Assembly: GCA_964343265.1 (NCBI GenBank)
Contig: CAYFIW010000001.1
Span: 6,709 to 70,708 of the forward strand
Reading direction: 5' to 3'
DNA from: an uncultured Dehalococcoidia bacterium
GTDB lineage: Bacteria > Chloroflexota > Dehalococcoidia > Lucifugimonadales > UBA826
DNA length: 64,000 bases
The notes beneath the pieces are model-generated. The model saw only the letters and a list, made by a program, of their open reading frames with translations, ran no database searches and was not told the origin of the DNA. Position 1 is the stretch's first letter, and the number at the start of each line of letters is the position of its first letter. A program made the position numbers and the translations under genes. This document shows positions 3,836-45,000 of the stretch, one piece after another.

Positions 3836-5440
3836 CTACCCATTCCTTTTTTGAAAACCGGTCTTATTCAGAAAAAATCCTACTACTATGGCTACTAACA
3901 AAACGGCCAATGCCACATTAAAAACATCCGTAATTGCCCCGCTTAGACTACCCTTCAAAACCTCCACTACAATGTTGAAAGAATCAGAACCAATTTCCGC
4001 CGAAGCAGCGTCAAGAACAGATGATTTGGACTCAGAATCAATTAAGGCCCTTGGATTATTTTTCAATTCCTCTAAAGCCTGAGGCAGTATTTCAATTTCC
4101 AAACCCATAATACCTTTTTCAAGTTTATCTTCAAATCTCGTTGATAAAACAGAACCTAGCGCTGAAAGACCTATCAAGCCTCCTATGGTTCGCGCAAATT
4201 GGGTGAGGCTTGTCGCAGCACCAATTGTATCGGGCGAAGTGAAATTCTGGACCGCCAGAGTTAGAGTAGGAAAGGTTGAACCCAAGCCAAATCCAAGAAT
4301 AATAATAAAGGTAACGGCCATTCCATAAGCAGAATCACTGCCTAAATTACTGAATAGAAAAACCCCAAGCGCCATCACTCCAATGCCCAATAATCCCTGG
4401 ATTCGAAAATGTCCCCCAGTCCTTGATAAAACTTGGCCAGATATTGAAGCACCAGCTACGACCCCCAACATCATTGGAGTCAAAAATGTGCCACTGCTCG
4501 TAGCCGATGCTCCAAGAACTCCCTGGAAATATAACGGAATAAAAATTATGGCGCCAAACATTGCAAATCCGGTCAAAAGAGTTAAAACAAGACCAACAGA
4601 AACCATACGTTCTTTAAATAATCTGAGTGCAAGAACTGGATTGGTAACGCGTAATTCAACATATATCAATACAGCCGCAGATAAGAGGCCAACCATAATT
4701 AATCCAATTACTTGAGGGGCATTCCATGCATACTGCACTCCTCCAAGTGAAATTCCCAGTATGAAGCTCACTACAGAGATAACTAGAAGTCCCATCCCGA
4801 CGTAATCTAGTCTACGTTTTTCAGGATCTGATTCGATAGACGAATCAGGAAAATATTTGATCAATAAAAAAATTACTGGCCCGGCCAAAGGTATATTGAC
4901 AAAAAAAACCCAGTTCCATGAAAGCGAATCCGTTAAAAACCCGCCTAAAGTTGGACCCACGACAGATGAAATCCCAAAACAAGCTGCCAATATGCCCATA
5001 TATTTACCACGTTGCTCAGGGGAAAATAAATCTGCAATAGAAATGAAGGTGACAGCCATTATCGTTCCACCTCCAAGTCCCTGAATAACTCTGGATACAA
5101 TAAGTTGCGTCATGTCCTGGCTTATGCCACAGAGTATAGATCCTATGATGAAGAGAACCACAGAGCCAACGAAAAACCACTTTCGTCCATATATATCTGA
5201 CAGCCTGCCCACTATTGGAGCTACTGTGGTTGATGCAACGAGGTAGCCCGTCGTGATCCACACATACCTATCAAATCCACCTAGTTCAGCAACAATCGTA
5301 GGAGTAGCTGTACTAACTATAGTTTGATCTAGAGCAGCGAGAAACATTGTTAAAAGGATACAAACAAGGGTAATTACTACCTGAGCCTTGGGAAGCTCAA
5401 TAAAATCCTCATTTTCTGTTTTCTCACTTGCCTGGGCCAT
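3836..5440 (-). CDS. MFS transporter, DHA2 (EmrB/QacA-like, about 14 TMS) family
   Basis: Motifs LDQTIVSTATPTI and GRLSDIYGRKW (MFS motif A-like). Many hydrophobic segments in a 534-aa protein. Confidence 0.85.
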   Translation of the reverse strand: MAQASEKTENEDFIELPKAQVVITLVCILLTMFLAALDQTIVSTATPTIVAELGGFDRYVWITTGYLVASTTVAPIVGRLSDIYGRKWFFVGSVVLFIIGSILCGISQDMTQLIVSRVIQGLGGGTIMAVTFISIADLFSPEQRGKYMGILAACFGISSVVGPTLGGFLTDSLSWNWVFFVNIPLAGPVIFLLIKYFPDSSIESDPEKRRLDYVGMGLLVISVVSFILGISLGGVQYAWNAPQVIGLIMVGLLSAAVLIYVELRVTNPVLALRLFKERMVSVGLVLTLLTGFAMFGAIIFIPLYFQGVLGASATSSGTFLTPMMLGVVAGASISGQVLSRTGGHFRIQGLLGIGVMALGVFLFSNLGSDSAYGMAVTFIIILGFGLGSTFPTLTLAVQNFTSPDTIGAATSLTQFARTIGGLIGLSALGSVLSTRFEDKLEKGIMGLEIEILPQALEELKNNPRALIDSESKSSVLDAASAEIGSDSFNIVVEVLKGSLSGAITDVFNVALAVLLVAIVVGFFLNKTGFQKRNG

Positions 5441-5563: not shown

Positions 5564-7192
5564 TTAATTTACTAAGGGTTGAGAAATTATCCAGAGACTG
5601 ACAGCAGTATAAAAAACCATCAGTACGAGCATCGGATATTGACTTCTAACAGCTAATTTATGATTAAGCATCCGCTTAAGTGATATAGCATGCGCTATAT
5701 AAACTGAAATTATATGTCCCACAACAATTGAACTGACGGAAAGTATCCAAGCGAATCTAGCATCCACTATGGCAATATTAGGCTTGTAATTAGCGGTGCC
5801 AAACAAATCCCAATCGGCAGTAGACAAGCTTCTAACTGAACAGATACTTCCTGACCAGTCACCGATACCACACCCAAAAGGATTTGAAATAAGAGGTATT
5901 ATCTGCTGACCAGTAATTAATAAAAATGAGAAATAGTGAGAAAGGTTATACACAAGTGCTATGGGCACCAAGGCAAACACAAAACTGTGGATAACAGCAT
6001 CAGTTCTCAATGACCTACTGGACAAAATAGATACATATCTACATATCAAGACATATGCCCCAGCAAAAAACAAAGGTATACATAGAACCCCTAAGGATTC
6101 AATAGCTGAAATAGCAGACCCTGGAAAAGGATCTAATATAGGCCACAAAAACGTCTGTACAGAAACCCAAACAGGGGTTTCCGATAGTCCATCATAAGTT
6201 ACTGTGGCTAAAGCAGTTATATGAAAAACAACCAATGAAGTCGATACTTGATCTCCCCTTAACAATCCTGATGCCCAAGGCCGGAAAGAAAAAGACCTAA
6301 ATTGCCTATACTTTGGATCTCGGCCGCTAATCTCCCAACATTCATAACAATCAACACAAGCATAGGCCTGAATTTCCTCTTGACATCCTGAACTACACTC
6401 CAAACAAATTTCAGAGCGTTTATGGTTATTTTCAATCCTGACTTCTGTTGGTGAAAATCGAGAAAACAGGGAGAACAATACAAAAAAAGGATCAGCCTTT
6501 TTCAGCCAAATATAACGTCCAAAAAGAAACATACCGACCCACGTGTACACGGTATATAGGAGAATCAAAATAGATAAACTAGCAGGACTAGACGCTCCCG
6601 TATAAACATTTTCTATCCAGGCAAAAACTACAAACCCTATTAGGGCTGGCCATGACTCAAGTCGAGCTGGCCATCTCAATATGCCAACATATTTCGATCT
6701 ACCAGGTATGAACAATTTTTCATAATATTTGAAAATAACTTGCCATGGATTTGCGATAGCCCAAACGTTACCAACAAGCGCGACAACATAACCAACACCA
6801 ACCCACCAAATTATCCAAACAAAAGTCGGGACAAAATTATCAAGTGCACTCGGTGTTCCCACCAAACCTGAAAAAACACTTAATATAAGCAAAATTATCG
6901 ATAATACAGACACGGTAAAAGCGATTAATCTACCCAGTAATCTGAAAAGCAAAAATTGCCACAAATTAACACGAACATAATCTGAACGTTCGTTATTTTG
7001 TCTGATAAACCATCCGATTAAAACAAATGACAAAGCCACCGTAAGTGCTCCGCCTACTAAGAAGTAGTTAAGGGGAATCGGCAAATCATATCTCTCACCA
7101 AACCCATGCGCATATGCTCTATCACCAGAAATCAAGAATCCCAGAATTGCAGCAAATATACCTACCGTCACCCATACAGATTTCATTTGCAA
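5564..7192 (-). CDS. Polytopic membrane protein of unknown function with a signal peptide, a predicted mature N-terminal His and a six-Cys loop
   Basis: Signal-like N-terminus ends in AYA, followed by HGFGERYDLPIPL. There are more than 10 hydrophobic segments. Cys cluster C-x2-C-x3-C-x8-C-x2-C-x2-C lies at residues 263-285 (nt 6338-6406). I recognised no family. Confidence 0.6.
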   Translation of the reverse strand: MQMKSVWVTVGIFAAILGFLISGDRAYAHGFGERYDLPIPLNYFLVGGALTVALSFVLIGWFIRQNNERSDYVRVNLWQFLLFRLLGRLIAFTVSVLSIILLILSVFSGLVGTPSALDNFVPTFVWIIWWVGVGYVVALVGNVWAIANPWQVIFKYYEKLFIPGRSKYVGILRWPARLESWPALIGFVVFAWIENVYTGASSPASLSILILLYTVYTWVGMFLFGRYIWLKKADPFFVLFSLFSRFSPTEVRIENNHKRSEICLECSSGCQEEIQAYACVDCYECWEISGRDPKYRQFRSFSFRPWASGLLRGDQVSTSLVVFHITALATVTYDGLSETPVWVSVQTFLWPILDPFPGSAISAIESLGVLCIPLFFAGAYVLICRYVSILSSRSLRTDAVIHSFVFALVPIALVYNLSHYFSFLLITGQQIIPLISNPFGCGIGDWSGSICSVRSLSTADWDLFGTANYKPNIAIVDARFAWILSVSSIVVGHIISVYIAHAISLKRMLNHKLAVRSQYPMLVLMVFYTAVSLWIISQPLVN

Positions 7193-7235
7193 ATCTCCAC
7201 TTAACTACTTTGATTTGAGAAACGTACCTATAAAA

Positions 7236-8000
7236 TTACGGTCGCACCTCTATTGAAATCAAAACCTTTTCATCTTCTTCATGCTCATCCGAATCGTCAT
7301 GGCCTGCATGTCCACCATGGTGATCAGTCTTTGCAGATGTGGGCGGCTCACCGCTAGTTATTCTTATTTTACGATTTTTCTGATTTGCCCACTCGATCGT
7401 TGCGCCAGGTACAGCTATAACATCCAATGGATCGAAAGAAACATCGCCCTCCGTCACTATTACTTTAATAATCCCTGATTGGCCATCATTAGAAATTTTG
7501 ATACTGCCTTTGACATCATGAGACATATGATCGTGATAAAAAATAGTCGTATCCAACATATCTGTTGGAATAGTGTAAGAAAAAGATTCTCCATTCTCCA
7601 ACGTTTCAGATTCAAAAAGAGCTGCATGGTCGTTCATATTTGCGGAGTGGGCATGACTATCATGTTTATCGTGACCCTCATGGTCACTCTCGTGAGATGT
7701 CAAAACATATAATCCCGTAGCGATGGCATCAAAGTCCAAATAGGTTACAACCCCTGATTCTAAATCTTTCTTGATGTCATAACCATGGAGGTGAACTGAC
7801 ATATCTTTATCTGAAGTCAATGAAAGTCTGACGTTATTCCCCTTTTTTACCTCTATTGGGTTTGTTACTCCTTGTACCTCATTTGCTAGAATTTGGATCT
7901 CAATTTCTATATCTTCGTCACTACCACTTCCACACGCAAAAACTATCACACTGATCACAATTAAAAATGTTAGACGACCAGCATTAAAAAATGATTTCAT
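7236..8000 (-). CDS. His-rich lipoprotein with cupredoxin-like domains (putative metal binding)
   Basis: Lipobox VFAC-GSG. The segment VHLHGYD ... LYVLTSHE resembles the uncharacterised HxHGYD cupredoxin-like family. FYHDHMSHDVKGSIKI looks like a Cys-less plastocyanin C-terminal loop. Several His/Asp/Glu-rich tracts are present (HESDHEGHDKHDSHAH, DHHGGHAGHDDSDEHEED). Confidence 0.55.
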   Translation of the reverse strand: MKSFFNAGRLTFLIVISVIVFACGSGSDEDIEIEIQILANEVQGVTNPIEVKKGNNVRLSLTSDKDMSVHLHGYDIKKDLESGVVTYLDFDAIATGLYVLTSHESDHEGHDKHDSHAHSANMNDHAALFESETLENGESFSYTIPTDMLDTTIFYHDHMSHDVKGSIKISNDGQSGIIKVIVTEGDVSFDPLDVIAVPGATIEWANQKNRKIRITSGEPPTSAKTDHHGGHAGHDDSDEHEEDEKVLISIEVRP

Positions 8001-33653: not shown

Positions 33654-36176
33654 TTGGAACAAGTTCTCAGCGGTTTGAGAATAGTTGAATTTGGAAATGA
33701 CGTAGCTGCCGCTAACGTTGGAAGGTTACTGTCGGCCTATGGTGCAGAAGTTATACTCGTTGAACCACCGGAAGGAAATATCCTCCGACATCTTCCTCCC
33801 TATGCAACCAAAACCTCAACCTCAGAACCTGACCTTGAGAAAAGCATCCTTTTTGCATACATGAGTACAGGGAAAAAATCCGTTCTCCTAGATTTAAATC
33901 AACCTCAGAACATACAAATATTAAGAGACCTTGTTCTCAGCTCAGACGGCGTAGTTGATAGTTACCAACCAGGATATCTGACCAAATTAGGCATTGATCT
34001 AGAAGAACTTTCGAACATAAAACCATCACTATGCGTCACAAGGATATCTCCTTACGGACAGACTGGGCCTAAATCCTCATGGAAAACCAGCGCACTGACA
34101 AGTTTTGCATCTGGTGGACAGATGTACTTAACAGGTGACCCAGACCGAGAACCACTCATGACGGCAGGACATCAGGCACACATACAAGGAAGTCTTCATG
34201 CACTCGGTGGTACATTAACCGCTTTATTTGCAGCAGAAAAAACCGGTAAAGGAGATGTTCTTGACATCTCTCTACAAGAAGTTCAGCTTGCTACCCTTGA
34301 GGGAGCAGGACCAGCCGCCCTTTGGTATGGATCTGAACAACCGAGGGGAGGCAACAATCCAAGGGCTTTATGGGGCGTCCATCCTTGCAAAGACGGATGG
34401 ATTGGCGTTGCATCCATGCCTCGCCAAACCCACTCTGTTTTGGACACCATAAACGCCTCAGCATTAAAAGATGACCCTCTTTTCAAAGACAATGCCTGGA
34501 GCCAAGAAGCTGACGATTTATTAAGACATTTAGTGCCGTTGTTTACTTTAGAGCATGACGCTGAGGAGATTTTTAAAGTCGCAAATTCTTACCGAGCCCC
34601 GTTTGCCATGATTCCTGAACCTAGTGACCTTTTGAAATGGCGCCACTATCAAGAAATAGATTTCTGGCAGAAAGTTACTCATCCAGTACTGGGTGAGCAT
34701 CCCGTTCCATCCGGACCAATATGGTTTAGCCCTGATGAAGGAGGGGAAAAACCACTTCCAGATAAAGGAATGTTTAGACCCGCTCCGACCCTAGGACAAC
34801 ACACAAAGGAAGTACTTGAAGCTTTAAATAGCCGATCTAAAACCTCTAAAACTATCAATAACACCACAGAATCAACAAAATGCGAAGACCCATATGGTCC
34901 TCCTTTAAAGGGCCTTCGTGTTATTGATATGACTCAAGTTTGGTCAGGCCCCTACGCCGCCCGCTTCCTGGCAGATATGGGCGCGGATGTTATAAAAGTA
35001 GAAGGACCTACTTTTCCGGACCCAATCAGAACCGCCACAAGACAACATCGCGCCGGGGAACCAGACATAAATGTATCCGCATACTTTAGTGAATATAACC
35101 GGGGTAAGAGAGGATTTGCTGTCGACATAAAACAAAAAAGTGGTCTAGAAGCGCTAAGAAAGCTAATCGCAACCGCAGATGTGTTCCTTGAAAATTGGTC
35201 TTCCGGTGTAGCTGATCGAAACTCTTTAGGTTATGAAGACATAAGATCAATCAATCCCAAAATCATATATGTCACTATGCCAGGTTTCGGTCACCAGGGT
35301 TCAGATTCATCCATGGTAGGATTTGGGCCGACTATAGAGCAAATGGGAGGGCTTGTCGCACTTCAAGGATATAAGGGAGGAGAGCCACACAAAACAGGGA
35401 TCTCTTATGGCGATCCAATCGCAGGGGCCACCTGTGCTGCTGCTATCGCCGCCGCCCTGTTAAGAAGAGAGAAAACAGGCTACGGGTGTTATTGTGTCTT
35501 GCCTCAAAGGGATGGAGTCACTGGTCTTGTTGGGGAATTCTTTATAGCAGAATCATTGGGCTTTCCGATGGAATTAAGGCTAGGCAACAGTTCCAATTTT
35601 TCTACTCCTCATAATATATACCCATGCAAGCCAGATGATAAACCGAGAATAGTTCTTGGACCTGACGGAAATCCTGTAGGCGAATTGTTTGATAGATGGA
35701 TCGCTATTGATTGTCAAAGTGACAAAGAGTGGGATGCACTAAAGAAAACCATAAATGATCCCAGACTCAATAACCAAGAATATTCGACTCTGCAGGGCAG
35801 ACTCAAATATACGGAACAGATAGATAAAGTAATATCAGAATGGACCTGCGAGAAAGATCCTCACGAATTGGAGAACTTACTTCAGTCAAAACAAATCACA
35901 GCGTCATCAGTGGCGACAGCTGCTTCACTTCTAAATGATAATCATATCAAGGAAAGAAACGTTTTTATCTCTGTGATTCACTCTATTGTAGGTACTCACA
36001 GTACAGCTAGGCCGACCTGGAGATTCTCTAAGCGTACTAGTCTTCCATCTAAATCTAGCCCATTGTTTGGGGAACATAATGAAGAAATACTAAAAGACCT
36101 AGGATACGACGAGGAGATTATATCTTCTATGAAACAAAGTGGCGCGATATCTAAAACACTCCTAGGAAACAGGTAG
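33654..36176 (+). CDS. Tandem (duplicated) family III CoA-transferase (CaiB/BaiF) fusion protein
   Basis: Two complete modules in one 840-aa ORF. Module 1 starts LSGLRIVEFGNDVAAANVGRLLSAYGAEVILVEPP. Module 2 starts near residue 420 with LKGLRVIDMTQVWSGPYAARFLADMGADVIKVEGP. TTG start with GGGAGA upstream. Confidence 0.8.
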   Translation: MEQVLSGLRIVEFGNDVAAANVGRLLSAYGAEVILVEPPEGNILRHLPPYATKTSTSEPDLEKSILFAYMSTGKKSVLLDLNQPQNIQILRDLVLSSDGVVDSYQPGYLTKLGIDLEELSNIKPSLCVTRISPYGQTGPKSSWKTSALTSFASGGQMYLTGDPDREPLMTAGHQAHIQGSLHALGGTLTALFAAEKTGKGDVLDISLQEVQLATLEGAGPAALWYGSEQPRGGNNPRALWGVHPCKDGWIGVASMPRQTHSVLDTINASALKDDPLFKDNAWSQEADDLLRHLVPLFTLEHDAEEIFKVANSYRAPFAMIPEPSDLLKWRHYQEIDFWQKVTHPVLGEHPVPSGPIWFSPDEGGEKPLPDKGMFRPAPTLGQHTKEVLEALNSRSKTSKTINNTTESTKCEDPYGPPLKGLRVIDMTQVWSGPYAARFLADMGADVIKVEGPTFPDPIRTATRQHRAGEPDINVSAYFSEYNRGKRGFAVDIKQKSGLEALRKLIATADVFLENWSSGVADRNSLGYEDIRSINPKIIYVTMPGFGHQGSDSSMVGFGPTIEQMGGLVALQGYKGGEPHKTGISYGDPIAGATCAAAIAAALLRREKTGYGCYCVLPQRDGVTGLVGEFFIAESLGFPMELRLGNSSNFSTPHNIYPCKPDDKPRIVLGPDGNPVGELFDRWIAIDCQSDKEWDALKKTINDPRLNNQEYSTLQGRLKYTEQIDKVISEWTCEKDPHELENLLQSKQITASSVATAASLLNDNHIKERNVFISVIHSIVGTHSTARPTWRFSKRTSLPSKSSPLFGEHNEEILKDLGYDEEIISSMKQSGAISKTLLGNR

Positions 36177-38425: not shown

Positions 38426-39442
38426 TTGACATGTTCTGACGAAAGTCATATCTACGAAGCAACAGATGATGACACTCCAGCTTTTGTTGGAATTGATACT
38501 TTTTTGCAAGGTCCATTTGTTAAAACGCCAAGCCAACTACGTGAATATAAAGCCGACGTTGCTATAATTGGCGCGCCATTTGACCTAGGTGTCGTACACA
38601 AACCAGGCGCGAGATTTGGCCCTCGTGCCATCAGACAGGCAGGATATTTTGGGGCTCCAAATGATGATATATATCATATAGGCTTAGGTATATACCCAAC
38701 GGACGAACTGAAAGTCGTTGATTATGGCGACGCCAATTGTCCTCCCAATTCTATTGAATTGAGCCACCGAGCCATAGAAGAGAAGGTTCGACAAATTCTC
38801 GATACAGATACAATTCCCGTAGTTATCGGGGGCGATCACTCCATCACCTTGCCTTCAGCGACAGCCGTTGCGAATCATTTTGGATTTGGAAATGTTGGCA
38901 TGGTTCACTTTGATGCTCATGCTGATACAGCCCCTTCATCTTACGGAGGTGTGCTAGAGTCACATAGCACTCCGATGCGTAGGTTGATTGAATCCGGAGC
39001 AATACCAGGCAAAAATTTTATCCAAGTCGGTCTTAGAGGATATTGGCCACCCCACACTTTATTTGATTGGATGAGAGAGCAAAAAATGAGATGGCATCCA
39101 ATGTCTGAAATCGAGACAGATGGATTTGACTCTGTGATAGATAAAGCAATAAATGAAGCACTTGATGGACCGGACAAAATATATTTATCGGTGGACATTG
39201 ACGTACTAGATCCCGCATTCGCTCCCGGTACTGGAACCCCGGAGCCAGGCGGGTTAAGTTCATCACAATTATTACGTGCTATAAGAACGATATCCAAATC
39301 GGTTGAAATCGTTGCAGTAGATATTGTTGAAGTTGCACCACATTATGAAGGACCCGCGAGTATCACAGCAGAGGCAGCACACCGTATGATGCTGGAAGCA
39401 ATTAGTGGTATTGCAGTTTATAGGAAGAATAATCGTACCTAG
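38426..39442 (+). CDS. Ureohydrolase-family enzyme (agmatinase / guanidino-acid hydrolase-like)
   Basis: Mn-binding motifs GGDHSIT, HFDAHADT and SVDIDVLDP. TTG start with AAGGGAG 7 nt upstream. Confidence 0.85.
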   Translation: MTCSDESHIYEATDDDTPAFVGIDTFLQGPFVKTPSQLREYKADVAIIGAPFDLGVVHKPGARFGPRAIRQAGYFGAPNDDIYHIGLGIYPTDELKVVDYGDANCPPNSIELSHRAIEEKVRQILDTDTIPVVIGGDHSITLPSATAVANHFGFGNVGMVHFDAHADTAPSSYGGVLESHSTPMRRLIESGAIPGKNFIQVGLRGYWPPHTLFDWMREQKMRWHPMSEIETDGFDSVIDKAINEALDGPDKIYLSVDIDVLDPAFAPGTGTPEPGGLSSSQLLRAIRTISKSVEIVAVDIVEVAPHYEGPASITAEAAHRMMLEAISGIAVYRKNNRT

Positions 39443-40353
39443 CCAAGATAGATATCCCCCGATCTGCCTCCCTTCTTACTAAGAAGTTTCGTACTCATCT
39501 CCATACCCTTGTCAACAGCCTTACACATATCGTAGATGGTTAAAGCGGCTATAGAAACCGCAGCTAATGCCTCCATTTCCACTCCAGTTTTACTCTGGGT
39601 TCTAGCCACGCTTTTAATTTCTATGGCCGAATCATTTTCATTTATTTCAAAACTTATATCTACGTGTGTTAGAGGTAATGGATGACAAAGAGGTATGAGG
39701 TTGGATGTTTGCTTTGCGCCCATAATGCCTGCGATTTTGGCAATCGCCAGCACATCACCTTTCTCAAAAGAATTCTCTTGAACTAATTGTAAAGTGCTTG
39801 GTAGCATTTTGACCGTGCCAACCGCCTCCGCAACCCTCTCCGTATCCGGTTTTGCTCCCACATTTACCATACTTACTTTGCCGGCAGCATCAACGTGAGT
39901 AAGCTTTTCTTGGAGGTCTACCTTTAAACCACTCATTCTTCCCTCATCTCTATTTTTTTTTGAATCTATGTTTCCCGTCGCCTCTCCATGAGCCAACCTA
40001 TCCGCCTCCTCATTCAATGGATCTCCAGCATGACCCTTAACCCATTCCCAATTTACTTTTCTTATCTGAACTTCTTTATCTAAAAGGTCCCACAAATCAT
40101 TATTTTTTTTTCGCTTCCAGTTTTTTGTCATCGTATTAATTACATAGGAAGAATCGGAAAAAACCGTTACTTGTGACTTCGATGGAATACTCTGTAGAGC
40201 CTCTACTACTGCCTTTATTTCCATTCTATTGTTTGTCGTATCAGGATCGTTACCATGAATAACTCGACGAGGTCCATCACCTATAATCACGGCTCCCCAA
40301 CCACCTGGACCAGGATTACCTAGACAGGCTCCATCTGTGTATATAGTGATCAC
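39439..40353 (-). CDS. rnhA-moaC: RNase HI fused in one ORF to cyclic pyranopterin monophosphate synthase MoaC
   Basis: Residues 1-~130 are RNase HI: IYTDGACLGNPGPGGWG, NNRMEI, SDSSYV, WEWVKGHAG and EEADRLA. Residues 140-304 are MoaC: LTHVDAAGKVSMVNVGAK, LIPLCHPLPL and GVEMEAL. An internal ATG at 39936 is preceded by GAGGGA. Confidence 0.8.
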   Translation of the reverse strand: MITIYTDGACLGNPGPGGWGAVIIGDGPRRVIHGNDPDTTNNRMEIKAVVEALQSIPSKSQVTVFSDSSYVINTMTKNWKRKKNNDLWDLLDKEVQIRKVNWEWVKGHAGDPLNEEADRLAHGEATGNIDSKKNRDEGRMSGLKVDLQEKLTHVDAAGKVSMVNVGAKPDTERVAEAVGTVKMLPSTLQLVQENSFEKGDVLAIAKIAGIMGAKQTSNLIPLCHPLPLTHVDISFEINENDSAIEIKSVARTQSKTGVEMEALAAVSIAALTIYDMCKAVDKGMEMSTKLLSKKGGRSGDIYLG

Positions 40354-40358
40354 TCTAA

Positions 40359-41375
40359 CTATCCACCAATGTGATACATTTCTACTTTTTGTCTGGTATC
40401 TGTCATTTCAGTTCTCTTTTCCGAATATTTATCTTCCCGTACTCTCCAAATGTTTTGTATAAGTTCCAATAATTCAGCCTTGCCAGCACCATTTCTTAAA
40501 GGCGTCCTGAGATCAGTACCTTTTTCTGCAAACAGGCAAGTTACTGCCTGGCCCTCCGGAGAGAGACGCATTCTAGTACAGTCTCCACAAAATGGTTGAG
40601 TGACTGACGAAATTACACCAAATTCACCTTTCCCATCTTTGTATTTAAAACGTTTCGCTACTTCACCTCCGTAGGAAGACTCGATTGGTTCAACTGGAAA
40701 TACATTACCGATAAGTTCAACTATAGCTTGAGCTGGCACCACCTCTTCAAGCTTCCAGTTATTCAGGTTACCTACATCCATATACTCAATAAATCTGGGA
40801 ATGTAACCACCTTCACGACACCATCGAGCCAAATCAATCACAGATTTGTCATTAACGCCTTTTTGTACTACGGCGTTTATTTTGATAGGAACTAATCCTG
40901 CATCTTTAGCAGCACTAATTCCATCTATAACTTTTGCTGTACTAAAACCCCTACCGTTCATTTTCTGAAAAACGTCATCATCTAGAGAATCCATACTAAC
41001 GGTAATTCTATTTAATCCAGCATCTTTCAAGGTCTGAGCCATTCCAGCTAGAAGGTATGCGTTTGTTGTCATTGCGATATCATCGATTCCATCTATACTC
41101 GCCAGCATCGCTATGAGTTGATGGACATCCTGTCTAACCAAGGGTTCTCCTCCAGTCAACCGGATTTTTCTTACGCCAAGTTCCACACAAGCTTCCACCA
41201 CATTGGTTATCTCCTCAAAGGTAAGTAGGTCATTTCTTGGGAGAAACTGATACCTTTCGCCATATATTTCTGCAGGCATACAGTAAGGACACCTGAAATT
41301 ACATCTGTCAGTAACAGAAACTCGTAAATCCCTCAAGGGTCTTTTGTATTGATCGATTATTTGTCTGCTTTTCAT
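40359..41375 (-). CDS. moaA: GTP 3',8-cyclase (radical SAM)
   Basis: Motifs CNFRCPYCMP and LTGGEPL, a C-terminal Cys cluster (CGDCTRMRL) and a terminal GG. Confidence 0.95.
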   Translation of the reverse strand: MKSRQIIDQYKRPLRDLRVSVTDRCNFRCPYCMPAEIYGERYQFLPRNDLLTFEEITNVVEACVELGVRKIRLTGGEPLVRQDVHQLIAMLASIDGIDDIAMTTNAYLLAGMAQTLKDAGLNRITVSMDSLDDDVFQKMNGRGFSTAKVIDGISAAKDAGLVPIKINAVVQKGVNDKSVIDLARWCREGGYIPRFIEYMDVGNLNNWKLEEVVPAQAIVELIGNVFPVEPIESSYGGEVAKRFKYKDGKGEFGVISSVTQPFCGDCTRMRLSPEGQAVTCLFAEKGTDLRTPLRNGAGKAELLELIQNIWRVREDKYSEKRTEMTDTRQKVEMYHIGG

Positions 41376-41379
41376 TTAT

Positions 41380-41988
41380 TTATATGTTCTTCTGTGTAGA
41401 CGCTTGCAAAATTAGGTATTCTCTAGCTTTTCTGACTGCAGAGCCTCTATGGGAAACCTCATGTTTTTCATAGGAAGGTATTTCCGCTAGAGTCTTTCCT
41501 TTCGGTGGGTAAAAAAACAGGGGATCATACCCAAACCCATTATTTCCTCTTTGTTCCCGGGTAATGTATCCCTCCACTTTACCATCAAATGTTATTGTCT
41601 CCTGACATGGTTGGTAGATTGCTACAACGCACCTAAATCTAGCCGTCAATAGTTCTTCCTCTACACCTGTTACATTTTTTAAAAGCAAATTATTCCGATC
41701 TTGGTCATCTAAACCATCTCCACCATACCTTGCCGAAAAGACACCTGGCTGACCTCCCAATGCGTCTACTTCTATTCCTGAATCGTCCGCGATCGTCATC
41801 ATAGACGCCAAAGAGCCGTATTCTTCAGCTTTGAGAATCGCATTTTCTTCAAATGAAGATCCCGTTTCGTCAACTTCATGATCGATATTTAAATCAACGA
41901 GGGACACTAGATCGTAGGGAAGATCCTTTAGCATTTCAGCCAATTCTTTAATTTTTCCTTCATTTCTCGTCGCCACAAGCAATTTCAT
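41380..41988 (-). CDS. rdgB: Non-canonical purine NTP (dITP/XTP) pyrophosphatase
   Basis: Motifs MKLLVATRNEGKIKE and FGYDPLF. The ATG at 41988 gives the canonical N-terminus. The track start at 42084 adds 32 residues. Confidence 0.9.
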   Translation of the reverse strand: MKLLVATRNEGKIKELAEMLKDLPYDLVSLVDLNIDHEVDETGSSFEENAILKAEEYGSLASMMTIADDSGIEVDALGGQPGVFSARYGGDGLDDQDRNNLLLKNVTGVEEELLTARFRCVVAIYQPCQETITFDGKVEGYITREQRGNNGFGYDPLFFYPPKGKTLAEIPSYEKHEVSHRGSAVRKAREYLILQASTQKNI

Positions 41989-42178
41989 TACGTCAGCCTT
42001 TATTGTGAAGTCATCACCATTACCCAGAATTATACCGTTACAACTCTCCCTGATTTTAAGGTTTGATACTGTAAACATAGACAAAACCTTAAATTTATGA
42101 CCTCTTGTATAATCACGATGAATTAATGAAATATATGAGCGGTCTATAAATAATTAGATATATATGCGGAGGATCAAT

Positions 42179-43822
42179 ATGCACCTTCTTGAAGTTTCAA
42201 ACCCAGTTGCTCAGCAACGAGGCATGATGAATGTACTAAAAACTAATCCTCGTCCAAGTACCTTGAATGACTTAACAATAGGCTTAGTATGGAGTGGAAC
42301 CCATGGTGGGGACTTAGCTCTCAATAGGGCGGGAGAGATAATTCAGGAAAGATTTTCTAACGTTAAAATCAATTTTTATACTGGGGGTAATTATCCTACT
42401 CCTCCAGCCATAGTGAAACAGGCTGGAGAGGAATGCGACGTTGTAATCGGAGCTACAGCGGATTGAGGGACCTGCGCGTCGTGGATGTGCCACGACATGA
42501 TAGAAATTGAGAAAATGGGAAAACCTGCGGTTCCAATTGTATCTGGGCGTTTTAAAGACGATGCAATTGCAAGTAGCAAAACCTTCGGGATGCCAGATCT
42601 TCAATTTGTTATTGTTCCTCGTATTTATCGCAATCTAGCGGATGACCTGTGTGTCGCCCAAACTGAAGAAGCCATAGACGATCTTATAGATTGCCTGACA
42701 TCGGAGGGAGCCTCATCGGCAACAGAGAAAGAAGAAGAATCCAAAATACGATTTGAAGGAGAGGATAGATACGACGCTGTTTTGAAGATGAACGCGGAGT
42801 TCAATAGAAGAGAGTGGTCGGATGCCCTTCCTTTATATCCCGCAACAGATGAAGCAGTGGCTGACTTAATTTCTGGAACAGGTTTAAAATCGGACGATGT
42901 TGTTTGTGATATGCCTCCAGGTTTTGGTGTCGCAACCGTTGAAAAAATAGCCATAAACTCCGCTCTCGCCGGGGCGAAGCCCGAACACATGCCAATTATA
43001 ATCGCAGGCGTGAAATGCTTATCAGAAATGGGCTCCCACGGGGGCAAATCTTTACTTATGTCTACTAGCCCGCACGCCCCTATTCTCGTTGTTAACGGCC
43101 CAATCGCCAAAGAGGTTGGCTTGAACCCACGGTCAGCTCTTGGACCAGGAAAAGAAAACGAGATAAACATAACCATAGGTAGAGCCTTTTATTTATGTCT
43201 CAGGAATATAGGCATGTGGTATCCGAACAAAATGGATATGGACACCATAGGAACAACAAGAAAATTTATTCAATGCGTGGCTGAAAATGAAGATATGAGC
43301 CCCTGGCCGAGCTATTCTCAGGATCGTGGTTTTGACGAAAAAGAGAGTGCTATTTCTATTTTTGTTACGGATGGAGAACTTGATGTTCAAGACCAAGGTA
43401 ATACATCAGCAGAAGGATTGCTAAAGACGCTGGCATACGGCATAACCTTTGGAAATACTACCTTGGGCGGTAGTCACGCACAGGGTCATGAGAGACTTAT
43501 ATTCATGCCCCCGGACGTAGCAGGACCGGTAGGCAAGGAGGGCTTCACAAAGCAAGATGCCAAAGAGTTTATACACAAGCATGCCAACCACAGTCTCGGA
43601 AAGATGATTCAGTATATGCCGCTTAATGATGCGAGAGTTGATGAACAATGGCACTATCTCAAAGACAAGACGGAAAAGGAAAGGTTGGCAATTGAAGTAC
43701 CCTTGCTTCATAGTGCAGACAATATCGATCTAGTAGTAGTCGGAGCAGATAGAGCCAAAACACTGGTATTTCCATCTGGTCCCACAGCTGCTACCGTCGG
43801 AATAGACCAATATCGCAAATAA
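42179..43822 (+). CDS. Putative selenoprotein. An N-terminal UxxC (UGSC-family-like) redox domain is fused to a ~400-aa domain of unknown function, with in-frame UGA at 42464-42466
   Basis: ORFs 42164-42466 and 42485-43822 share one frame, and TGA is the only interruption. Read-through gives ...VVIGATAD-U-GTCASWMCHDMIEIEKMGKPAVPIV. GGAGGA lies 5 nt upstream of the ATG at 42179. A hairpin follows the TGA. Confidence 0.7.
42478..42496 (+). promoter_or_regulatory. Candidate bacterial SECIS element (recoding hairpin)
   Basis: GTCGTGG-AUGUG-CCACGAC forms a perfect 7-bp stem with a 5-nt G/U-containing loop. The stem begins 11 nt after the in-frame UGA. Confidence 0.55.
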
Positions 43823-43917: not shown

Positions 43918-45000
43918 TTGGGTGTCCTAGATCAATTTAAGGTAGTCGAACTTAGTAACTATCCTGCGGGTAATATTTTGGGCATGCTGTTGGCAGACCA
44001 AGGTGCCGACGTGTTAAAAATTTTCCCTGAAGAGGGAAACCCCCTAGAAGGCACTGCTGAACATGCTGTTTGGAACAGGGGTAAAACTCAAATTAGGACT
44101 TCATTTTCCTTAGAAACTATTCTTGAATTTCTTAGTGCCGCTGACGTTTTAATCGAGTGTCTAAACCCACATCAGGCAGATAATATAGGCCTGACATCAG
44201 ATATCCTGTCTAAAACAAATGCAGGCCTGATTACTGCCTCGTTACCTGCATTCCGAGAAGGCCATAAGTACGAAAATATACCCGCCAGAGAAGAATTAGT
44301 AGCCGCATCTTCAGCTATCTATGCTCTCAATCCTTCAGGTGAACTTCCCGTTGAAGGAGAGGGACCCTCTTTTCATAGTCTTTACTACGCCAGTACCTTT
44401 GCCGCCATGACTGCTGCTCCCGCAGTCGTAGCAGCTCTTATTCAAAGAGATCTCACAAAAAAAGGTCAAAAAATCACAGTACCAATACATGATGCTATGT
44501 TCCAAGGTATGGGAACCGCTCTAGTCCGCCATGCAAAGAGGAAACATGGAAGACAAGAAGGCCATCCAATCATCGAGAGGTTCTATGAATGCTCAGACAA
44601 TAGATGGGTAAATGTAAATCTATCGATCCCTAGATTTTTGGAGATATTTCTTGATGTTATAGAGCATCCTGAATGGATGAAAGATATTTCTAGCATCGGG
44701 CTCTCAAATCCTGACTCTTCGTTAATAGATTCTTGGAAATACAAAATTAATGCAGTTTGGAAACAACGGACAGCTCTGGAGTGGGAATCTTTAATGTCAG
44801 ATGTGGGCCTACCGGTTACTATGTGTCGAAGTATCGACGAATGGGTTAATGAAGAGCACGCTTTGCAATCTGGTGCGATTATAGAAATCAATGACCCTCA
44901 TTTTGGGAAAATGAAACAACCCGGGATTTTAGTTAGGACCCTGTCTAATCCAGGCATAGTTTCTGGCTCTGCACCTTACATTGGAAATATCCATGAATAA
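43918..45000 (+). CDS. Family III CoA-transferase (CaiB/BaiF) protein
   Basis: N-terminus LDQFKVVELSNYPAGNILGMLLADQGADVLKI. TTG start. Confidence 0.75.
   Translation: MGVLDQFKVVELSNYPAGNILGMLLADQGADVLKIFPEEGNPLEGTAEHAVWNRGKTQIRTSFSLETILEFLSAADVLIECLNPHQADNIGLTSDILSKTNAGLITASLPAFREGHKYENIPAREELVAASSAIYALNPSGELPVEGEGPSFHSLYYASTFAAMTAAPAVVAALIQRDLTKKGQKITVPIHDAMFQGMGTALVRHAKRKHGRQEGHPIIERFYECSDNRWVNVNLSIPRFLEIFLDVIEHPEWMKDISSIGLSNPDSSLIDSWKYKINAVWKQRTALEWESLMSDVGLPVTMCRSIDEWVNEEHALQSGAIIEINDPHFGKMKQPGILVRTLSNPGIVSGSAPYIGNIHE

Follow-up and report, generated by a model that had tools for sequence, protein, structure and literature searches.

The gene described here, rnhA::moaC, lies in a 64,000-nucleotide stretch of contig CAYFIW010000001.1 from an uncultured Dehalococcoidia bacterium; this whole stretch will be called the window. 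A single open reading frame (ORF) of 915 nt, or 304 codons according to the list of ORFs with their translations, joins an N-terminal ribonuclease HI (RNase HI) to a C-terminal MoaC, an enzyme of molybdenum cofactor (Moco) biosynthesis. Pfam places RNase_H at aa 2–123 (E = 7.9e-36) and MoaC at aa 162–296 (E = 4.9e-55). The coding strand at the junction reads GAT TCA AAA AAA AAT AGA GAT GAG GGA AGA ATG, in which a run of nine adenines (A9), a hidden TAG that lies out of frame, a GAGGGA resembling a Shine-Dalgarno (SD) sequence, and an in-frame ATG follow one another. An earlier note on this DNA had drawn attention to the ORF and to each of these junction elements, all of which are found where it had placed them. 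It offered three explanations for them: a genuine fusion created by a 1-nt deletion, a homopolymer error of sequencing or assembly that merged two coupled genes, or a site that gives two products by slippage or by internal initiation.

To judge from the comparison with relatives, the RNase HI-MoaC fusion is genuine and is common to many marine SAR202/Dehalococcoidia bacteria. We consider it likely that the locus is a conserved two-domain gene of marine SAR202-type Chloroflexota, part of an rdgB-moaA-rnhA::moaC operon, and that it probably also yields free MoaC. The coordinates of the gene, its parts, and the two genes upstream of it are collected in the table below.

Table. Features of the rnhA::moaC locus, in window coordinates
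Feature	Position	Strand	Remarks
rnhA::moaC fusion ORF	39439..40353	-	304 aa; GTG start 40351-40353, TAG stop 39439-39441
RNase HI domain, aa 1-125	39979..40353	-	E. coli-type, basic protrusion shortened; pLDDT >90
Second A9 run, codons K-R-K-K-N-N, inside the RNase H domain	40103..40111	-	internal control
Inter-domain linker, aa 126-150	39904..39978	-	variable in length and sequence; predicted disordered
A9 run, codons TCA AAA AAA AAT	39953..39961	-	lineage-specific, incidental
Out-of-frame TAG, in frame if the run is A10	39950..39952	-	not conserved
SD-like GAGGGA	39940..39945	-	spacing to the internal ATG 3 nt (5 nt counted from GAGG)
In-frame ATG, Met140	39934..39936	-	codon 140; LTH motif of MoaC 11 codons further on
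MoaC domain, aa 151-304	39442..39903	-	TIGR00581, E. coli MoaC structures; pLDDT >90
moaA (radical SAM + Mob_synth_C)	40359-41375	-	Pfam; stop 5 nt 5' of the fusion-gene GTG
rdgB/Ham1-family NTP pyrophosphatase, first gene of the cluster	41380-42084	-	PF01725 E 1.5e-61; synteny in relatives
NTP, nucleoside triphosphate; pLDDT, predicted local distance difference test.

The fused gene in relatives and the A9 runs

The DNA of the ORF recurs with 100% identity, both A9 runs included, in two other assemblies (loci L170 and L171), of which L171 is a contig from a Tara Oceans run. Three loci from other samples, at 94–95% nucleotide identity (L001, L168, and L169), are fused as well. The gene is still fused in relatives that are free of the homopolymer, both at 86% nucleotide identity (L002–L004) and in L005–L011, whose guanine-plus-cytosine (GC) content lies between 45 and 69%. 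In a search of 5.8 billion proteins, the best 120 homologues range from 94% down to 54% identity and from 289 to 446 aa, and all of them (120/120) carry PF00075 together with PF01967. Their source names mention only MoaC and are from SAR202, Dehalococcoidia or Chloroflexota. Taken together, the fused genes span GC contents from 35% to 71%, with conservation from 94% down to about 46% identity. Near relatives match the RNase H domain and the MoaC domain at similar levels of identity, and both domains are evidently under selection. Among the matches listed in an earlier genome scan with the full-length alignment, for which the patterns were taken from MoaC motifs, 8 of 80 loci are fused; every fusion found there belongs to Chloroflexota/Dehalococcoidia/SAR202, and beyond this the scan tells little of how widely the fusion is spread. 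A representative search has about 20–25 clusters at 50% identity with both domains among its top matches, the rest being single-domain MoaC or RNase H.

The window has a GC content of 41.6% and contains only three homopolymers of at least nine bases, two of which are inside the fusion ORF. In the RNase H domain, the run is translated in frame, flanked by the invariant W79/K80/R81 and N84, and relatives have A6 or A8 in its place. Since this second run is in frame through invariant residues, the A9 runs are not mis-assembled here. The junction run is limited to sequences that are at least 94% identical. It is the same in L170 and L171, and in L168, L169, and L001 the nine adenines are followed by a G. 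In these last three loci the resulting AAG AGA removes the hidden TAG, and in L001 the next stop of that frame lies past the LTH motif. L002–L004 read TCG AAA GGA AAG GGA at this site, with no homopolymer, and the A9 is also absent from the more distant fused genes. The possibility that the fusion is an assembly error was tried and ruled out on the identical DNA in other assemblies, the homopolymer-free fused relatives, and the second A9 in frame.

Changes of run length were also simulated. With A10, the RNase H frame ends at once, giving a 134-aa product that terminates in DSKKK, with the SD and ATG 17 nt further on. With A8, it is a TGA sharing bases with the internal ATG (ATGA) that closes the RNase H frame, after 139 aa. 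However, the median distance to the next off-frame stop in the fusion ORF is 6–7 codons, and the chance of an off-frame stop is ~0.09 for an immediate one and ~0.5 within six codons, so that there is nothing remarkable in the hidden stops. Like the A9 run, the hidden TAG is a by-product, specific to the lineage, of lysine and asparagine codons in a genome of 42% GC. In bacteria, nine consecutive A or T residues are of the class treated as slippage-prone (PMC1088944), and unprogrammed slippage at the A9 may take place to some extent. Programmed slippage as a conserved feature was rejected, the run and the alternative-frame outcome being without conservation beyond the nearest relatives.

These observations bear on the explanations offered at the outset. 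The suggestion of a sequencing or assembly error fails on the identical ORF in two assemblies, the fused relatives at 95% nucleotide identity, and the two-domain architecture of all 120 best homologues. The suggestion of a genuine fusion is right about the fusion but not about its origin: since homopolymer-free relatives are fused, the fusion was not created by a 1-nt deletion at the A9 in the lineage of the window, and it is much older than the A9 tract. The earlier note had named conservation of the fusion in relatives without a homopolymer as the mark of a real fusion, and this is the situation in L002–L004. As for two products, slippage loses its footing because neither the A-run nor the TAG is conserved, while internal initiation gains comparative support from the SD and start codon that are kept in low-GC relatives, about as far ahead of the LTH motif as the moaC start of separate-gene lineages.

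States of the junction and the probable internal moaC start

The junction was followed through relatives by a scan of metagenome contigs, using an alignment that covered only the short handle of the RNase H (the basic protrusion of this domain). The loci found in this way were pooled with the earlier ones, and the fused or separate state was assigned by tblastn frame comparison. Among the matches listed, with at most 600 pattern matches per scan, 96 sampled loci have a short-handle RNase H; 66 of these are fused in frame, 19 have separate adjacent genes, 10 have no MoaC nearby, and 1 runs off the contig end. Ten divergent loci were all classified by tblastn; five of them (L108, L113, L120, L130, and L153) are left out of the separate-gene junctions described below, and the other five (L010, L097, L115, L133, and L145) are included in the tblastn-based analysis of linkers.

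Where rnhA and moaC are separate, their junctions take several forms. The two genes overlap as TAATG in L012. In L101–L103 the ATG of moaC lies 5 nt before the stop of rnhA, with GAGGGGG upstream. Spacers of 26–35 nt with AGAGGAG or AGGAGG followed by GTG are seen in the L117 group, L141, L143, and L128, and the spacer is only 2 nt in L148 and L152. The stand-alone moaC genes start at an ATG or GTG with an SD, 6–10 codons before the LTH motif, and most of their products begin M/V-S. The gene directly upstream is moaA in 40 of the 55 fused loci that could be assessed and in 13 of 16 separate loci, and the order rdgB-moaA-rnhA-moaC is common to both states. On this evidence, the fused gene evidently interconverts with separate, adjacent, and translationally coupled rnhA and moaC genes.

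Some loci depart from this order. L012, a Dehalococcoidia metagenome-assembled genome (MAG; CBDESO010000017.1, positions 3974–4941), has an rnhA of 158 aa with a longer handle and a moaC of 163 aa that overlap by one base. It is flanked by DNA methyltransferase-like ORFs, and moaA lies about 2.3 kb upstream and does not directly adjoin. In two other Dehalococcoidia MAGs (L013 and L022) the cluster is rdgB-moaA-moaC, and no RNase H gene separates moaA from moaC; rnhA is therefore not an obligatory member of the cluster.

The direction of change was examined on a neighbor-joining (NJ) tree of the concatenated domains from 80 loci, dereplicated to 58 taxa for Fitch parsimony. The separate-gene lineages are nested within the fused ones. 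Under parsimony the root is fused in all 40 bootstrap replicates, with 3–4 state changes; a history of fissions only takes 4 events, and one of fusions only takes 11. An ancestral fusion followed by 3–4 later fissions is thus the favored history.

The linkers of the fused genes were searched for an in-frame ATG, GTG or TTG with AGGA, GGAG or GAGG 3–12 nt upstream, and were divided into those of low-GC (<50%) and those of high-GC fused genes. An SD and start codon are present in 21 of 26 distinct low-GC fused linkers, which by our own grouping represent about 12 lineage groups, 10 of the 12 with the signal. The expected number is 3.9 when windows of equal length are taken elsewhere in the same genes, and 5.8 when codons are shuffled within the linker (maximum 13 in 1000). 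The shuffle was added since the composition of the linkers could bias a comparison with windows from the folded domains, and the signal held. On the other hand, only 6 of 31 high-GC fused linkers have an SD and start codon, where 4.9 (windows) or 5.2 (codon shuffle) are expected.

The best candidate start in each low-GC linker is 8–15 codons before the LTH motif. The mean predicted SD/anti-SD energy at these starts is -7.7 kcal/mol, compared with -2.8 kcal/mol at other internal start-type codons, and pairing is stronger in the linkers than at the codons with which the fusion genes themselves begin. Changes in the encoded residues leave the SD in place, as in L086 with gggagggccagtaATG (GGPVM, gggaggg) and L089 with ggagaggtagaaATG (GEVEM, ggagagg). 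The start codon varies within one sub-clade between ATG (L150 and L166), GTG (L135), and TTG (L167). In the window itself the site is gagggaagaATG, which forms a duplex of -6.4 kcal/mol with the anti-SD, and Met140-Ser141 matches the M/V-S beginnings of most stand-alone MoaC proteins. The Met140 ATG is probably a retained moaC start codon. From the pattern among relatives we conclude that selection acts, in the low-GC fused genes of marine lineages, on what appears to be a moaC ribosome-binding site. Such selection would be explained most simply if free MoaC were still translated from this site.

Domains, linker, and gene neighborhood

The RNase H domain scores 123.8 bits with PF00075 (threshold 25.8), and its best PDB matches are the RNase HI structures of E. 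coli, Shewanella, Thermus, and Chlorobium (phmmer, E ~1e-30). In the phmmer alignments to structures, D7, E45, D67, H108, and D118 align with D10, E48, D70, H124, and D134 of E. coli. These catalytic D-E-D-D residues and the histidine are invariant or at least 90% conserved in alignments of 26 and 87 homologues. By comparison with E. coli RNase HI, the structure alignment shows a basic protrusion with about 14 residues fewer. The absence of these residues accounts for the score of 142 bits with the NCBIfam rnhA equivalog NF001236, which has a cut-off of 160, so that the domain stays below equivalog level. The description of the RNase HI as complete therefore holds for the catalytic residues, all of which are aligned, but not for the handle.

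The shortened handle is found family-wide. In the window it corresponds to 40089–40146 on the minus strand (RNase H residues ~70–88), where only TKNWKRKKNNDLW remains. Short-handle RNase H also occurs without MoaC, at the 10 loci counted above, in ORFs of 130–198 aa (e.g., L106, L132, L134, and L139). Two divergent fused genes (L010, 4001–4951, and L011, 3901–4806) have GDSENPFHKEAH in place of the family's GHAGDPLNEEAD, and the equivalents of E. coli His124 and Asp134 are Asp and His. The RNase H domain of these two proteins may have altered or reduced activity. Two further proteins, P0093 (446 aa) and P0121 (464 aa), carry about 150 extra residues between their RNase H and MoaC domains. This insert looks like a second, degenerate RNase H-like domain, which would give the arrangement RNase H - RNase H-like - MoaC.

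By its profile scores, the MoaC domain (cyclic pyranopterin monophosphate synthase) is a full equivalog, with 193.7 bits for TIGR00581 (cut-off 141.5) and 213.5 bits for NF006870 (cut-off 162), and it scores 185.7 bits with PF01967 (threshold 27). The E. coli MoaC structures 4pyd and 1ekr align from their residue 3 (E = 1.6e-42). Residues K198, H224, E259, E261, D275, and K278 are invariant in alignments of 26 and 87 sequences; we take them to be the counterparts of the E. coli active-site residues K51, H77, E112, E114, D128, and K131.

The linkers among relatives are 10–70 aa long and cannot be aligned between clades. An AlphaFold2 monomer model, built from the alignment of 87 homologues, shows both domains with confidence (pLDDT mostly >90), with residues 131–152 at about 31 and a predicted template modeling (pTM) score of 0.50. 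The model fits two domains that would be placed independently on a flexible tether.

Pfam confirms the presence of rdgB and moaA upstream, as had been claimed, and rnhA::moaC is the final gene of a tightly packed rdgB-moaA-rnhA::moaC operon. A convergent arginase-family gene (38426–39442, plus strand) overlaps the fusion gene by 4 nt at the stop codons, and this overlap is retained in L002–L004, L168, L170, and L171. The neighborhood (regions 33654–36176, 43918–45000, and 42164–43822, all on the plus strand) includes several family III CoA-transferase genes. One neighbor of the CoA-transferase family is 840 aa long; the gene calls of the relatives list only a CoA_transf_3 match for it, and from its size it may have two such domains. 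A UGSC-family gene pair, one small and one large, also belongs to this neighborhood, and the gene order of the neighborhood is conserved in relatives. In the 93%-identical relative L001, a major facilitator superfamily (MFS) transporter (6045–7346) has been called as two pieces of 109 and 290 aa. The same transporter is one 433-aa gene in the window and in L002, and the split in L001 is probably a frameshift or assembly error.

Explanations of the locus and comparison with known systems

The reading that we prefer is that of a genuine fused gene with a moaC start that would still be alive inside it. The RNase H domain would act on RNA/DNA hybrids and MoaC on the product of MoaA, each independently, and the MoaC oligomer (hexamers in the solved homologues) would gather several RNase H domains. 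GAGGGA-N3-ATG would be the retained and still used ribosome-binding site of moaC, and in-frame internal initiation would give a free MoaC of about 165 aa beside the 304-aa fusion. We lean slightly toward the view that the internal site is still used and that both proteins are made. A more elaborate version, in which free MoaC would be in excess, mixed hexamers of the two forms would serve as multivalent scaffolds for a few handle-less RNase H domains, and the live internal start would make fission harmless and the fusion unusually reversible, seems to us unlikely. It would, however, explain the 3–4 independent fissions, since with the internal start kept alive a single indel or nonsense change would split the gene without loss of function.

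Several points weigh against this reading. The fusion protein and the internal product are both predictions from the sequence. The SD is only moderate in the sub-clade of the window, and it is weaker in L001 (GACGGAAGC, -4.9 kcal/mol) than in the window. There is no enrichment of internal starts in the high-GC fused genes (6 of 31 against about 5), and since these genes lack the signal, the fusion protein alone must suffice for MoaC and internal initiation is not required. The statistics on 26 linkers overstate independence, because the linkers come from about 12 lineage groups. A similar picture would be expected of a fossil ribosome-binding site that repeated recent fusions had left behind. 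Also, the locus counts are bounded by the sampling of each scan, and the tree is a simple NJ tree of about 280 columns with midpoint rooting.

The most serious alternative takes the SD and ATG as a mere fossil of the former moaC start, with the 304-aa protein as sole product and a fusion fixed by drift. The high-GC fused genes, which have lost the signal, evidently need nothing beyond the fusion, L001, L109, and L133 have a weak SD, and the separate-gene relatives show where the signal came from. A precedent exists in the mycobacterial RNase HI-CobC protein, whose domains were found to be functionally dissociated and whose linker is highly variable, and for which fixation by drift was concluded (PMC7466739). 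However, a neutral relic should decay in linkers that have diverged beyond alignment, yet about 10 of 12 low-GC groups keep the SD and start codon. The SD survives nucleotide changes that alter residues, the start codon is replaced solely by other start codons, and SD pairing in the linkers surpasses that at the genes' own starts. Parsimony moreover places the fusion deep, so the signal would be old. We therefore give the fossil real weight but do not think it probable. Far weaker is the idea of a collapsed homopolymer, in which the true run would be A10, rnhA would end at the TAG, and moaC would start at the ATG at 39936. It is true that A9 runs are error-prone, that one extra A yields a clean 134-aa RNase H with the SD and ATG 17 nt further on, and that separate rnhA and moaC genes exist in related lineages. 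Against this stand the same ORF DNA in two other assemblies, the fused relatives at 95% nucleotide identity, the fused homopolymer-free sister lineage, the 120 of 120 fused best homologues, and the second A9 that is in frame through invariant residues, which leave the idea with practically no chance.

Programmed slippage on the A9 by RNA polymerase or the ribosome would give A10 and A8 products, and hence separate RNase H and MoaC beside the fusion. The run is of the slippage-prone class (PMC1088944), and the +1 and -1 products both stop within 0–17 nt of the internal ATG. Yet stops at such distances are expected by chance, given that off-frame stops occur every 6–7 codons. The run occurs only in sequences at least 94% identical and is absent from L002–L004 and from all other clades, in L001, L168, and L169 it is followed by G and the TAG is absent, and slippage at the other A9, within the RNase H, would do no more than cut the enzyme short. 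This makes programmed slippage very improbable. The remaining alternative is functional coupling, either through recruitment of RNase H to Moco/purine-nucleotide metabolism or through a MoaC hexamer that supplies the handle-less RNase H with substrate affinity. The position of rnhA between moaA and moaC and next to rdgB, in fused and separate lineages alike, speaks for it, as does the family-wide shortening of the handle. In E. coli, protection from the base analogue 6-hydroxylaminopurine is provided both by RdgB, a pyrophosphatase of non-canonical purine NTPs, and by Moco-dependent enzymes, and one may speculate that the rdgB-moaA-rnhA-moaC cluster is a purine-damage module. On the other side, the separate-gene lineages and the 10 MoaC-less loci imply that the RNase H needs no covalent attachment, and the linker is disordered and unconstrained in length at 10–70 aa, with no inter-domain contact indicated by the pTM of 0.50. 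A literature link between the two activities was not found in open-access papers. We hold coupling to be improbable. As far as is known, the earlier note was right to call the activities functionally unrelated: nothing was found that ties them together, and the one hint of a link is the place of rnhA inside the rdgB-moaA-moaC cluster in all states. With these alternatives weighed, the conserved fused gene that probably also yields free MoaC remains our preferred reading.

A known comparison for the internal start is with genes that use internal initiation, of which IF2, ClpB, and CheA are the classic cases. In-frame internal initiation in bacteria has been mapped genome-wide by retapamulin ribosome profiling (Ribo-seq; bioRxiv 10.1101/520783). 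As in those genes, an SD and in-frame start inside the ORF would give a shorter C-terminal proteoform, for which the evidence here is comparative only. Unlike in those genes, the short form would be a complete enzyme that works separately, and its start is plausibly the start of the free-standing gene in sister lineages. The programmed slippage sites (9A/9T in insertion sequence (IS) elements, dnaX, and mxiE; PMC1088944) also have an A9 in coding sequence with alternative-frame stops nearby, but differ in that here the run and the alternative-frame outcome are not conserved in relatives.

The two domains have their own counterparts. Stand-alone E. coli-type RNase HI (PF00075, NF001236) has the same fold family and the five active-site residues, and differs in the roughly 14 handle residues that are missing here and in that the enzyme is usually fused to MoaC in the clade of the window. 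The locus provides a natural RNase HI with a truncated substrate-binding handle. The known MoaC fusions, namely MoaC/MoaB (NF002947), MoaC/MOSC (NF011069), and MoaC/MobA (NF011070), show that MoaC tolerates fusion, as it does here. Their partners, however, belong to the Moco pathway, whereas the partner here is an N-terminal nucleic-acid enzyme, and the fusion protein is far below the cut-offs of all three families.

No description of an RNase H-MoaC fusion was found in the open-access literature, a restriction which means that this is not proof of its being undescribed. The two-domain architecture is visible in public databases, where the NCBI/JGI names are just "MoaC". As a result of this naming, the RNase HI of a large and abundant group of deep-ocean bacteria goes unnoticed in annotations. 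Automated pipelines could also mistake the fusion for a frameshift error. Current understanding is not overturned by this gene. Its value is that one junction can be followed through all its states, with a spacer, with an overlap, and as a fusion that either retains an internal start or does not, in a series where fissions apparently outnumber fusions. This makes it a tractable case for how a gene fusion forms, persists, and is reversed, and for asking whether a fusion stays reversible through the retention of an internal ribosome-binding site.

Among described proteins, the closest to this one is the actinomycete RNase HI/CobC-type acid phosphatase (Rv2228c, MSMEG_4305/RnhC, NF005567). Both are fusions of one clade, with an N-terminal type-1 RNase H, a highly variable linker, and a cofactor-biosynthesis enzyme that has no evident connection to RNA/DNA hybrids. 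The domains of the actinomycete protein behave independently in vivo and the authors attribute the fusion to drift (PMC7466739); the abstract reports no conserved internal start for the actinomycete proteins. The differences lie in the partner, which is MoaC and not a CobC-like phosphatase, and in the RNase H, which is of the E. coli sequence type (~1e-30 to the E. coli structures compared with 1.6e-09 to Rv2228c). With NF005567 the protein scores 44.7 bits through its RNase H part only, compared with a cut-off of 326; it is not a member of that family, and its C-terminal domain is MoaC. The rnhA::moaC gene is therefore a second example, after RNase HI-CobC, of an RNase HI tethered to a cofactor-biosynthesis enzyme.

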